Assembly (NCBI GenBank): GCA_964016885.1
Contig: OZ024742.1
Coordinates: 197,222,001 to 197,286,000, forward strand
Source of the DNA: Eledone cirrhosa
Lineage: Eukaryota
Direction: 5' to 3'
Length of the DNA stretch: 64,000 nt
Below, in pieces: positions 16,450 to 62,250 of this stretch. A program made the translations under genes and the position numbers. The first letter of the stretch is position 1; each line of letters begins with the position of its first letter. The notes under the pieces were generated by a model. It saw nothing but the letters and a program-made list of their open reading frames with translations, searched no databases and was not told where the DNA came from.

Positions 16450-16980
16450 GTTGAAATAAAATGAAAACGAAATTTCGTTTCTCACTCTTAGTACGGCACT
16501 TACTTAAATGTAAGTATGCATGTATACGTACATACATATATGTATACAGACGTACAGTAGCATGCATATATATATATATATATATATATATATATATATA
16601 TATATATATATATATATATATATATACATACAGGTACACATACATATATGCACGTATCAGTTTAGCGGACGCTTATTATAACGCCGCTTTGTTCGTTTGT
16701 AAACAAACTGAACAGCCTGAATTTTTATGCCGTACGGTGTTAAGGCAACCACGTCACCTTTTTGTTCAACACTGACACAGGAACCATGTACTAGTTTCAA
16801 GCTTGTTAGCTATCATCAGCACCGTATACCCATCTGCCAGATAGTTGAATGTCCGCTAAACTGATACGTGCATATATGTATGTGTACCTGTATGTATATA
16901 TATATATATATATATATATGCATGCTACTGTACGTCTGTATACATATATGTATGTACGTATACACACATACTTACATGTA
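16450..16980 (-). mobile_element. non-coding HHR-bearing repeat (family R) with inverted duplication
   Basis: Homologous to 37530-38310 and 21172-21300; arms 16508-16671 and 16850-16979 are inverted. Confidence 0.75.
16784..16824 (-). ncRNA. type I hammerhead ribozyme
   Basis: cggtg CTGATGA tagct-aaca-agct t GAAAC ta GTA catgg. Confidence 0.75.
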
Positions 16981-17280
16981 TATATATATATATATATATA
17001 TATATATATACAGTATATGCATATATATATATATATATATATACAGTATATGTATATATATATATATATAATACAGAATGGCCCAAAAGTCGCGATACAT
17101 AAAAAAATTATGTATGTATGTATATGTATGTATTTATATGTATGTAGACGTTTTACAGGGATTCCGTAAATCCCTCAAAAGTTCGATAATCGATTTATCA
17201 TTACTGATTTAAGGATGTATATCGATTAATATACAGGATCATTCAGTATGTCGTCCAGCGTGGGGTATATTATTTATTTC

Positions 17281-17461
17281 GTGGATTGGCAGTATCGGTA
17301 GAGCATCATGCTTTGCAGCATAGTGTGATGGCCCTTTACGTCCTGAGTTCAAATCCCGCCGAGGTTAGCTTTGCCTTTTATCCTTACGAGGTCGATAAAA
17401 ATAAAGTACCAGTAATGCATTGGGCTAATTGCTGGCCTTGTGCCAAAAGTAGAAACAATTA
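17281..17461 (+). mobile_element. SINE family A
   Basis: A and B boxes, core and tail match 8551-8748. Confidence 0.85.
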
Positions 17462-17752
17462 CTTTTAATTCAACCCACCTCCCGAACAAGACAACGGAAG
17501 TAATTTAGATAGCCTCCGATAAGACTGAGGAAAAATAATAAATTCGGTGTTGAATATAATGATATATGGTTTTGTTCAAACCACAAAGAGATAAAACGAT
17601 AAAAATACAAGATAACAGTAGTTTCTATCGTAACTAATTATTTATATAACTTGAAGTATACATTAAAGAATATTCCGTAAAGGCGCGTGGCTTAACGGTT
17701 AGAAGGTTAGGCTTACTTTTTATTTACAATTTAATATGTGTATATATATATA

Positions 17753-18288
17753 TGGTGGCTGCCAACTCGTTTTCGAGTACGGCCACTACTTTATATCCAT
17801 GTAGGAGAACCCCTACCGATGGGAGTTCAGCCAGCGACCTGAAAACTCTGGCACAAACACTACACCTGTGACAATTATTGACACACAGTGCTGGGCCCAT
17901 GGTACCATGTGACGACAAGTGCAGAGAGATCTCCAGATATAAAGCAATGCCTGTGCCGTGAAGCTTTTATAGTGAGCAAAGGCACTGCACAAAGCCAGTC
18001 CCACTTTCTTAACCAAGATGATATTTACCAAAAAGAAGAACAAGTCAACATCATTGAATACCATCAGGGTTGCAGGTGTTATATCAGAGTTTTCCTTCTC
18101 CTAGAATTCTCCCTTGACAAAGGCTAAGGGGTCATCTCTCCCGGTGATTTTGGATGGCCATTGACTCTTAAGAGCTCCTTTGCCCTTTGACAGGTTTTGT
18201 TTTTAGTCCTGCAGGATGTCCAAAGTCACCCTCCTCACCAAGAAAACTTGGTGGGGTTGCCAGTTTAGTCGCCAACGACTCGACCATG
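17753..18288 (-). mobile_element. bipartite non-autonomous RTE derivative (5'UTR + 3' end)
   Basis: RTE 5'UTR signature CTAGGAGAAGGAAAACTCTGA plus 3' C2H2 remnant HRCSVCARVFRSLA; flanked by (TA)n; copies at 22958-23220 and 35310-35750. Confidence 0.75.
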
Positions 18289-59286: not shown

Positions 59287-60061
59287 CAATGGCTGAAACA
59301 TCCCACTTGCCGAATAAGATAGGGGAAACCCCAGCTGACATAGGTAGATGTACCTCTTCGTTTCCTATCTGTTTTCTTCTTCCCTATGTCTCCTCCTATC
59401 ACTTCCTTCCACTCCCGATCCTCTTTCTTTTTTCCCCTTTCGCCTTCCCCGAGGCAGTCCATCGGGCCTCTGTAGCCTCAGTACCCCATCCCAGTAAATT
59501 AAAGATAGCATTGGCCGAAAACGCAATACTAACTAATCATAGCAGCTGTGTTAGACCCCAGAGATTTTGTATTACTTTTTACTACACAATTCTATAATTT
59601 CAAAAATTCTTATTTAGTATCTTCTATTCTCAACTTATTAACCTATTCTATAGCATTGGCCGAAAAATCAACACCAACTAAATATAGCAGCTGTCTTAGA
59701 CTCCACAGTTTTTGTTTTTTATCACTTCTTACTATCCAATTTTATATTTTTATATATCTTTCTCTTATTTTTTTATTGTCTCCAAATCTCAATTGATTTA
59801 CCTATTCTATAACGTCCCTCCTCTATTTCCTCCAGAACCCTTTTCGCCTACTTCCTCTGACCTACTTTCATACACAATCCTTAGAATTTGCTGTATAGAT
59901 TTCACTTTCAACGCTTGACCGGCCCCATCCACTCCCTCATTGCTCTACAGGCAAGTTCAGCCATCCCCACATCCCACCCACTGCCATGATAGAGTTAATT
60001 GTGTTTACAAGAAATTTTGACCAAACCTCTTGACAACTACAATCTTCCCATATAAGGAAGT

Positions 60062-60157
60062 ATCCCTTGAAAAGTTCGGCTATTTATTTAGCAGGCTAAA
60101 AATTCTAATTTAGTCCAGAAATAGCCGTCGAAACGGCTTGGGCTCTGCCGTCGGGGT
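60062..60157 (+). ncRNA. type I hammerhead ribozyme variant with U3-A8 pair and long stem II
   Basis: atccc TTGAAAA g.tcggcta...tagccg.c GAAA cggc...gcc GTC ggggt; second copy on minus strand at 56816-56911. Confidence 0.7.
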
Positions 60158-60186
60158 CATACATTTTCCTATATATATATATATTT

Positions 60187-62250
60187 GTCAGCATTTTCTT
60201 TTCCTTTTTACTAATATATCACAACTCGTGTGTCACACCTCTCTCTCTCTCTCTCTCTCTCTCTCTCTCTATATATATATATATATATATATATATATAT
60301 ATATATATATATATATATATATATATATATATATATATATGTAAATATCTTTAAGTCGTTTGGAAGCCTCGACAATGCAAATGGGTAAATCTCCGGGTAA
60401 CAAGGTCCGGTGGTGGAGAGAGAGATGTAAGTGGGTGTACGTTCAGATGCGTGGTGTGTATAAGATGTGTGAGATGTGTAGAATAAAGGGAAGAGTATAA
60501 AGGATAAAAATAAAAATAACAACACAAGAGAGAGTTAACTTGGGAGAGATTTAATAGTCCCTATATATTTCGGATTCACATCCATCAACTGGGGTTTTTT
60601 TCCGGGGTGGGGGAAAAGGTTGTCTGTCGGACAAGTCCGGAACGCGTCTTTCGCTGTTTGTTGTTTTGAATATCTGAGGTATTCGGCAGAGCGCGCGTGC
60701 GCGTGAAATGGGGTCGGTCGTACAGAGGTCAGCGGCCGAATGAGGGAGTGGGATGGCGCTAGCTGTCAGTCCATTCTCTGCCTGTTTGTTAAATGTTACT
60801 GTGTGTGTGTGTGCGTGTGTTGTTGTCTCGCTTGAGTGTGTGTGTTGTGTGTGTTGTTGCCTTGTTCATCTGTATTGGCAGTGTAGTATGTTCGTATGGT
60901 GGAATGCTACTGTGTGTGTGCGTGTGTGTGTGTAGTTGTCTCGTTTGCGTGTGTGTGTGTGTGCGTGTGTTGTGTGTTGTTGCATCGCTTGTTAACTTAA
61001 ACCAGCCATTTCATTTCGCTTCTCTCTGATCGGTTGTTTATTTGCGGTTGCAGTCGTTTGATAAAAAGCGCTTCCTTGATACGTAACGTGCCGACGTTTC
61101 TTTCAGTCGCTAGAATTGTGACAATGGGCCTTCCGTCTTTGTTTCCGCATTTGTCTATGTGTTTCCGGAAAGACGAGGCCCTGGTTTTAGTGTGTTCCTT
61201 GATCCGGATGTGTAAAGGTCGAATTGTGCTACCTATGTAGTATTGGTTGCACCTGTCACATTCTATCTTATACACGACGTATGTGCGTAGGCAACAGTTA
61301 GCATGGCGTATCGGGCAGTCTCTGAGGGAGCATGCGTCAGTAGATTTTTCGGGTTTCCTGGAGAGGCATCTTCGCAGGGAGGGGCCCGAGTGGGCCAGGT
61401 GGATGTCGAGGCCCTCCCTCCGTATAGCCTTGCGGATAGCGTTGGTGGTTTTCTCGCCCAGATGTGGAATTTTAAGGAAGCACTTGCCTTGGGTGCTTCT
61501 CTGTCTCTTGGTGTCTGGTGTCTCCTATTCTGTCTGTGATCGAGGTAGGGTACCCGTTCGTCTCCAGCACCTCGAGGAATCGCTTGGTATGAGTGACACC
61601 ACTCGCGGGATCGCTGCATCTGTTTTTGATTCGCGCGATCTCGTTCGTGATGTATCCTCTTTTGGCACTGTTAGGGAGGGCGGACTTGTAGTGAACGAAT
61701 AGGTCCCTGCAGGCCGCTGACCTCTGTACGACCGACCCCATTTCACGCGGACGCGCGCTCTGCCGAATACCTCAGATATTCAAAACAACAAACAGCCAAA
61801 GACGCGTTCCGGACTTGTCCGACAGACAACCTTTTCCCCCACCCCGGAAAAAACCCCCAGTTGATGGATGTGAATCCGAAATATATAGGGACTATTAAAT
61901 CTCTCCCAAGGTAACTCTCTCTTGTGTTGTTATTTTTATTTTTATCCTTTATACTCTTCCCTTCATTCTACACATCTCACATATCTTATACACACCACGC
62001 ATCTCAACGTACACCCACTTACATCTCTCTCTCCACCACCGGACCTTGTTACCCGGAGATTTACCCATTTGCATTGTCGAGGCTTCCAAACGACTTAAAT
62101 ATATTTACTTATTGTTCCACAATGCTTCAAGCAAATTTCAATACTCTCTTATATATATATATATATTTATATATATATATATTAAAAAATAGAGGTGTTA
62201 CACACGAGTTGTGATATACTAGTAAAAAGGAAAAGAAAATGGTGACAAAT
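60187..62250 (-). mobile_element. 5'-truncated PLE (GIY-YIG end) flanked by ~395-bp inverted pLTRs
   Basis: 60342-60737 is inverted at 61712-62105 and 60187-60238 at 62193-62250; minus strand VYKIECDRCNQYYIGSTIRPLHIRIKEH...IKEALFI. Confidence 0.9.

Follow-up and report, generated by a model that had tools for sequence, protein, structure and literature searches.

Type I hammerhead ribozymes are carried in the pseudo-long terminal repeats (pLTRs) of Penelope-like elements (PLEs), where the motif is always kept and yet is dispensable for insertion in vitro (PMC11167929). In the survey by Cervera and de la Pena (2014; PMC4209133) helix III is short or palindromic, A9 is followed by an additional base, and the motifs form many families per genome, survive mostly as solo truncated copies with some opposite-strand pairs, and include a U3–A8 core pair. 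These features (the additional base in part of the motifs) recur in the DNA described here, a window of 64,000 nucleotides from the cephalopod Eledone cirrhosa (contig OZ024742.1, positions 197,222,001 to 197,286,000). We think it very probable, from the arrangement of the copies and of the predicted proteins beside them, that the window carries the terminal-repeat hammerheads of at least seven PLE families together with one tandem retrozyme, accumulated by repeated 5′-truncated insertion into microsatellite-rich DNA, and that the same holds genome-wide. The original prediction for this DNA had spoken of an under-described, lineage-specific ribozyme ecosystem. As a picture of elements that lack open reading frames (ORFs) this is overstated, and the system, its solo truncated copies and the U3–A8 core were already published; what is added is scale, the range of families, the large number of Hydra-like elements and two core variants that are fixed in elements whose ORFs are intact.

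Hammerhead motifs of the window and their carriers

The window consists of transposon debris and microsatellites, and a host gene was not recognised in it. Motifs were sought with a descriptor of helices I, II and III that accepts five variant cores besides the canonical one and tolerates an additional base behind A9; a stricter first descriptor, with six matches, was set aside. The original prediction had placed type I hammerheads at 25 positions by manual folding, and this folding was accurate: at all 25 a motif is present on the given strand, within about 110 nt of the coordinate, in the order helix I strand, seven-base core, helix II, GAAA, helix III, UH, helix I strand. The sites sort into 12 families (A–K and M) where about 10 had been proposed. 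Seventeen look intact (16 pass the descriptor, and a family K copy with C3 at 60067 is complete by alignment and fails the descriptor owing to a 2×1 loop), and eight are damaged or deviant copies (21534, 23232, 37591, 43148, 45046, 52844, 56190 and 56906). Three motifs were absent from the earlier list: 33034 (+, family N), 46497 (+, family F) and 38921 (+, a deleted copy of family G).

Chance matches in AT-rich repetitive DNA might be suspected from the short stems of families G, M, C and D and from an Rfam search of the window, which returned no hammerhead at gathering score (at E-value level there were 314 matches, and nearly all of the 150 listed were microsatellite-driven microRNA models). 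The descriptor, however, gives 17 matches in the window (16 of the listed sites and 33034) compared with a mean of 0.25 and a maximum of 1 in 40 local shuffles, and none in the reversed window; reversed versions of every pattern used on the whole genome gave no match there, the position in the pLTR is fixed and the stems covary. These controls refute the chance explanation, to which we attach practically no weight. As the Rfam search at gathering score was empty, standard annotation overlooks every one of these motifs.

Protein searches with four ORFs of the window found many long open frames, from which 20 loci were fetched; in 18 of these the long ORF adjoins a matching motif, and an inverted truncated copy often accompanies the full element. 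Intact ORFs flanked by the motif of their own family were found for F (713 amino acids (aa), 5/5 loci), G (846–909 aa, 5/5 loci, with 3.1-kb tandems) and M (854–923 aa, 3/3 loci), and K-type intact ORFs of 784–790 aa in 5/5 young loci, a 784 aa young relative lying in 3.53-kb tandems; no long ORF was found at two older K loci. The intact frames of F, G, K and M (713–923 aa) are predicted to encode reverse transcriptase (RT) with a GIY-YIG endonuclease, and the autonomous families have one hammerhead at the pLTR end, immediately before the next ORF, both in the tandem units (3.1–3.5 kb) and in inverted partial copies. This pLTR–ORF junction is also the position of the hammerhead in the Poseidon element PAc of the anole (Frangieh et al., 2024; PMC11167929), whose core is canonical (C3–G8) and whose protein-assisted cleavage was assayed; that of the motifs here is predicted.

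Two types of protein can be distinguished. Those of G and M match RVT_1 and GIY-YIG in Pfam. Of the marks of the Neptune/Nematis type they have GxKF (as GPKF), DKG and CCHH, while their linker has three cysteines spaced otherwise than in CX2-5CxxC. Those of F and K have RWR (with DKT in K and NKT in F), a CxCx5C linker, CxxC and CxH, and CCHH is absent. A first assignment of F and K to Neptune and of G and M to Poseidon was overturned by these protein motifs. By the motifs that Craig et al. (2021; PMC8557442) give for the Hydra clade, predicted F and K proteins are Hydra-like, sharing RWR, D/NKT, CxCx5C, the lack of CCHH, CxxC with CxH, (TA)n targets and a hammerhead. Differences from that clade, as the consulted part of that paper presents it, are the unit (3.2–3.5 kb in F and K, <3 kb in Hydra), the copies here, which reach tens of thousands, and the cores, which are U4A in F and U3–A8 in K and canonical in Hydra.

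In the window, family F is represented by a 5′-truncated ORF with the endonuclease end (24621..25250, +; 93% to the intact ORF in locus L165), a hammerhead with U4A core at the 3′ pLTR end followed by (TA)n (26188..26244, +), two damaged motifs (43100..43156, −, G12 lost; 44999..45054, −, helix II deletion), a hammerhead with tail (46313..46369, +) and a further truncated copy (46489-46545, +), by a frameshifted RT–endonuclease part (53856..54943, +) and by a hammerhead with U4A core (55870..55926, +). Family K has a broken full-length Hydra-like ORF (57037..59282, +; 73-88% to the intact ORF in locus L178) between two hammerheads with U3–A8 cores, one in an inverted 5′ pLTR copy that has lost U16.1 (56813..56914, −) and one in the 3′ pLTR (60059..60160, +). 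A minimal family G hammerhead with U4C core (38798..38842, −) has a fold-back partner with an internal deletion (38913-38945, +), and a further family G hammerhead (47721..47765, −) lies 415 nt after the endonuclease end of a broken RT and GIY-YIG ORF (48172..49697, −), of which there is also an inverted N-terminal piece (49542-50198, +). Family M has a minimal hammerhead with the core CAGUUGA in the 3′ pLTR (60554..60599, −), the GIY-YIG end of its ORF (61000..61723, −; 98% to locus L175) and a hammerhead in an inverted pLTR copy (61850..61895, +).

Three further families can be placed from their genomic copies: B precedes a Hydra-like ORF in 3/30, I adjoins one in 3/30 and D follows a GIY-YIG end in 2/30, the other ORF matches at B, D and I loci belonging to unrelated insertions. 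Their window copies are a canonical B motif with hairpin helix III (19306..19362, −), an intact canonical I motif (50328..50388, +) and, for D, an intact minimal hammerhead (22356..22399, +) and a decayed copy (23224..23267, +). Many family B copies are tiny fold-backs truncated within the motif. Two intact canonical family H hammerheads lie at 46686..46748 (+) and 52593..52656 (+), the second (at 52601) with a Hydra-like endonuclease remnant 953 nt upstream (51270..51648, +). Family C is present as a motif with A14C core and 2-bp helix I, likely dead (21526..21569, +), and as a decayed copy (56155..56198, −), and family E as a single motif with a branched 83-nt domain II and palindromic helix III (23587..23705, −). 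The two family J motifs are inverted partners, one decayed (52805..52852, −) and one with an extended helix I (53460..53507, +) in which U4C occurs in this copy only (1/6 aligned).

Family A is of another kind. It has a canonical type I hammerhead, no ORF and a GC content of about 0.36, and forms a tandem with a period of 418 bp in the window (37530..38309, +; hammerheads with C3 at 37591, where helix III is broken, and at 38009, intact) and arrays of 420–500 bp genome-wide; a solo copy with one helix I mismatch lies at 16781..16827 (−). It fits a putative non-LTR (long terminal repeat) retrozyme, the only clear non-autonomous one among the 12 families, and tandem transcripts would likely be cut into circles of about 420–500 nt that borrow a PLE enzyme. 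The metazoan non-LTR retrozymes (PMC7229834; preprint 10.64898/2026.07.22.740005, Li et al.), in the passages of these reports that were used, likewise have a canonical hammerhead, 6-bp helix I, 4-bp helix II and low-GC, ORF-less tandem units beside active PLEs; family A differs in its units of 420–500 bp, and its circular RNA is a prediction. Further retrozyme-like arrays were seen at L169:29-1584 (311 bp), L028:6638-7694 (528 bp), L021:5602-6069 (467 bp) and L167:1096-1388 (292 bp).

The expectation that these hammerheads belong to PLEs and retrozymes was thus borne out, with 7/12 families (B, D, F, G, I, K, M) tied to predicted PLE ORFs, four of them (F, G, K, M) to intact ones and three (B, D, I) to partial ones, and A as the retrozyme. 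With seven families tied in this way, most ‘ORF-less’ copies would be 5′-truncated ends; for A, C, E and J no linked ORF was found.

Abundance, insertion ends and a proposed mechanism

The wider sample comprised the 200 kb flanking the window and 99 evenly spaced 10-kb stretches of contigs C1–C23 (C24–C28 and small contigs lie outside it) of the 3.0-Gb genome. The spaced set (990 kb) gave 118 descriptor matches with a score of at least 20, in 54/99 stretches, compared with 8 in reversed and 6 in shuffled controls, and the 200-kb flanks gave 25. The matches of the spaced set form at least 36 families, 21 of them singletons, with 4 control matches at that threshold. Scaled to the genome this is about 357,000 motifs with all cores (bootstrap 260,000–463,000) and 245,000 with canonical cores (166,000–336,000), both before subtraction of a background of about 7%, so that we estimate that the whole genome carries some 250,000–350,000 predicted hammerhead motifs. 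A floor is given by an exact-pattern search of the whole genome, in which the patterns span part of each motif: 73,565 matches (A 23,602, many inside the 420–500 bp arrays; F 14,999; B 14,405; H 6,788; I 5,687; G 2,951; M 2,678; D 2,259; C 99; J 95; E 2). The two matches of family E, window 23591-23623 and locus L001, are 117 kb apart on the same contig, which suggests local duplication. The 2,000–9,000 motifs per genome in the part of PMC4209133 drawn on here are far below our estimate, although the descriptors differ, and the cited record of 126,247 in the axolotl (PMC7229834; 10.64898/2026.07.22.740005, from the same portions as above) is also below it, though the genome here is about nine times smaller. 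One motif per 8–10 kb would place many potential cut sites inside long introns.

The original prediction also called the collection dense. In absolute terms it is, with 17 motifs against 7.6 expected from the spaced set (P=0.039), a P value inflated because the variant cores were picked from the window; canonical cores alone number 8 against 5.2 expected (P=0.22), and the density is mostly a property of the genome. The window is a PLE-rich patch within a PLE-rich genome, only mildly motif-rich. These figures bear on the view that a lineage-specific set of ribozyme elements, for the most part non-autonomous, is concentrated at this locus. For that view one may cite a motif density about twice the average, with PLE ORF sequence making up 11.7% of the window compared with 3.1%, the very abundant and non-autonomous family A, the missing ORF links of C, E and J, and the additional tandem arrays at L169, L028 and L021. 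We nevertheless regard it as improbable, since 7/12 families are ORF-linked, motifs with canonical cores do not exceed the genome-wide average (P=0.22), and of the 110 motifs sampled 76 are solo, 29 have an inverted partner and only 5 form part of short tandems.

How the solo copies arose is suggested by the insertion ends. Relative to the predicted cut, 3′ ends cluster downstream, at +29/+117 in F, +123/+163 in G, +20/+103 in K, and +53 and +204 to +281 in M; between −30 and +15 there are none for F, G and M and three for K. As insertions end beyond the cut site, uncut RNA is the likely template. This resembles PAc, in which uncut RNA is the template, reverse transcription has two internal starts plus a tail and ribozyme mutants still insert (PMC11167929); the two end points per family here match the two insertion end points of PAc. 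A microsatellite lies within 150 nt downstream of 67/110 motifs and of 19% of control sites, which the published (TA)n preference would predict. We propose that reverse transcription would start 3′ of the ribozyme on uncut RNA and would usually abort early; as the ribozyme would be among the first parts copied, early abortion would most often leave the motif alone, so that it appears ORF-less. Cleavage, to judge from published PLEs, would be slow, needing a dimer (through palindromic helix III) or the protein of the element, and would serve to trim tandem transcripts to unit length, not being required for insertion. A short palindromic helix III in 82/110 sampled motifs points to such slow, dimer-dependent cleavage (PMC4209133, in the part available). 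The 5′ truncations of family F (reference L165:3339) were also located: 19/46 fall within 15 nt of C3, at the 5′ edge of the ribozyme, six in the 62 nt upstream and three in the 31 nt downstream, where short matches are harder to detect.

The extra base after A9 occurs in 60/110 sampled motifs. The first pair G10.1–C11.1 is present in M, G, C, D, I, J, K and N and absent in A, B, F and most of H. The palindromic stem III noted originally holds for 17/25 window sites, which belong to families of the palindromic type, a hairpin taking its place in F, K and B; several families here differ from the cited portion of PMC4209133 in having a long or branched helix II or this hairpin. Covariation of the stems, the test named beforehand, was scored on copies gathered by BLAST rather than by structure, one per locus, with 500 shuffles per family (in family B 17/23 copies were aligned). 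It was seen in H (26/28 copies, two with helix II deletions being dropped), with 9/22 pairs compensatory (all but one in helix II) and a pairing rate of 92.7% of cells compared with 37–52% with partners slid, in K (17 copies, 3/20 pairs) and in J (6 copies, 4/13 pairs), and in each of the three 0/500 shuffles reach the covariation score. The lack of covariation that would have refuted the original prediction was therefore not seen in families variable enough to show it.

Against our reading of these sequences as PLE and retrozyme hammerheads must be set that the compensatory counts come from related copies sharing inherited changes, that the shuffle results are not probabilities, and that no compensatory change was seen in the young families F, G and M, which are too uniform. 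Isolated monomers mostly fold no better than shuffles (z below −2 in 4/13). On the side of the carriers, the F and K proteins match no Pfam family, the clades were assigned from motifs and not from a tree, the ORF link of family H is a single adjacency (the endonuclease remnant in the window), family C has a linked ORF in 0/20 loci, and no ORF was found for J or for the low-copy family E.

Variant catalytic cores

The core CUGANGA (or UUGANAA) with GAAA is kept in families A, B, D, E, H, I, J and K, and is departed from in F (U4A), M (U4A with A6U), C (A14C) and 68% of G. The original estimate that roughly half of the sites deviate from the strict motif agrees with 13/25 at family level (F 5, M 2, K 2, G 2, C 2), family G being counted although only about 68% variant genome-wide; strict searches miss such cores. 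In family F, U4A is fixed, with 14,941 copies against 58 canonical ones by exact patterns over the whole genome. Among the matches listed, family M has CAGUUGA, in which U4 and A6 are swapped, in 98/100 and a canonical core in none, and a sister subfamily, whose loop II differs and whose helix III is shorter, shows CAGUUGA in 89/100, the remainder being six CUGUUGA, two CAGAUGA and three others, again none canonical. CAGUUGA persists where the identity of M-lineage ORFs is 74–80% and, in locus L055, that of the pLTR is 68%. Alternative registers for this core were rejected, as none leaves helix II intact. Family G is polymorphic (68 U4C and 32 canonical in 100 among the matches listed), family C has A14C in 81/99 matches together with its 2-bp helix I, and the K lineage has U3–A8 in 12/17 copies; three K-lineage copies (loci among L161, L183, L184 and L190) have C3 opposite A8, a possible intermediate in the switch of the pair. 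Family N, whose window copy at 33026..33099 (+) has the core CAGUCGA, was considered as a second fixed CAGU family and rejected, as its relatives show five cores including the canonical one and the exact pattern matches once.

PLE relatives from metagenomes bear the same small motif after their ORFs (25 matches in 22/55 loci, some likely chance), with canonical, U3–A8, A3–U8, U4C or U4A cores; CAGU was not found among these motifs. That the relatives have the same motif with varied cores suggests that the M motif is a derived hammerhead and that core variation is common among PLEs. The A3–U8 pair follows the ORF in three of them (L207:2044, L211:2078 and L214:2159), and U4A was also seen in a lone long-stemmed hammerhead unrelated to family F (L057:4374). 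Of the published natural variants, U4C, known from a viroid (Perreault et al., 2011, PMC3088659; PMC7151607), is the change seen in family G, and U3–A8 (PMC3088659; PMC7151607; PMC4209133) that of family K. In the parts of PMC3088659 and PMC7151607 drawn on here, the variants are rare single cases and do not include U4A or U4A with A6U; in the present genome variant cores have become fixed across thousands of copies. Both U4A and CAGU are absent from 56 aligned representatives in the consulted part of PMC4209133, and a literature search found no report of either core, nor a cephalopod census, with the proviso that Lunse et al. (2017), outside this comparison, may hold U4/A6 variants. The two fixed cores (U4A and CAGUUGA), in intact-ORF families and predicted to be self-cutting, look new.

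On the mechanism proposed above, slack in cleavage would let variant cores (U3–A8, U4C, U4A, and U4A with A6U) spread. A rival that differs from this only in the function of the variant cores is that in M, F, C and some of G useful cutting has been lost and the motif is retained as a protein-binding folded handle or as part of an internal promoter, and we would put its chances at a little under even. The anole PLE still inserts in vitro when the core of its ribozyme is mutated, and RNA ends were not found at the cut site (PMC11167929); A6C alone strongly lowers Mg-dependent cleavage (PMC3088659 and PMC7151607, same parts); family C spread while carrying A14C and a helix I of 2 bp; cores are mixed in G and in the relatives of N; and only 1/9 Xenopus retrozyme dimers was cleaved (10.64898/2026.07.22.740005, again in part). 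Set against these is the M lineage, in which loop II and the length of helix III drift and pLTR and protein fall to the identities given above, the core, helix II, GAAA and the palindrome remaining fixed, and the recurrence of U4A in the unrelated motif of L057 and in one metagenome copy. A bolder proposal for family M itself is that it is a working hammerhead with a rewired uridine turn, in which A6U came first and U4A rescued it, with the core under selection across a radiation of active retrotransposons, in a genome whose hammerhead load may exceed any counted so far; we consider this rather unlikely.

The genome in any case offers a matched natural series of cores in young intact-ORF families, namely canonical, U3–A8, U4C (two states in one family), U4A, and U4A with A6U, to which may be added a family whose spread followed A14C. 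Should the variant cores prove to cut, the consensus for hammerheads would have to be widened, and counts from strict searches would be about 30% too low; should they not, elements can reach thousands of copies while carrying a dead ribozyme, and another role for the fold must be assumed.

Other repeats in the window

Repeats within the window were located by self-BLAST, as microsatellites swamped the general repeat finder. A broken Helitron Rep/helicase lies at 10096-14590 (−; Pfam Helitron_like_N), and there are two remnants of long interspersed nuclear elements, at 1616-4216 (−) and 5975-7318 (+), one with AP (apurinic/apyrimidinic) endonuclease, RT end and zf-RVT and the other a C-terminal piece that matches zf-RVT weakly. 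A dispersed repeat of about 200 bp has more than 10 copies, several as fold-back pairs, in which neither a descriptor match nor a tRNA was found (7535-7768, 8445-8753, 17266-17474, 28205-28423, 30290-30604, 31423-31868, 34451-34687, 39817-40158 and 63679-63892), and a young repeat (92–98% identical, 260–420 bp), without a hammerhead match, occurs at 17754-18150, 22962-23220 and 35332-35748. A 34-bp minisatellite of 12.8 copies (97%) occupies 52962-53396, between the inverted family J motifs, and a near-perfect palindrome of 390 bp, centred on a microsatellite, lies at 26513-26903.

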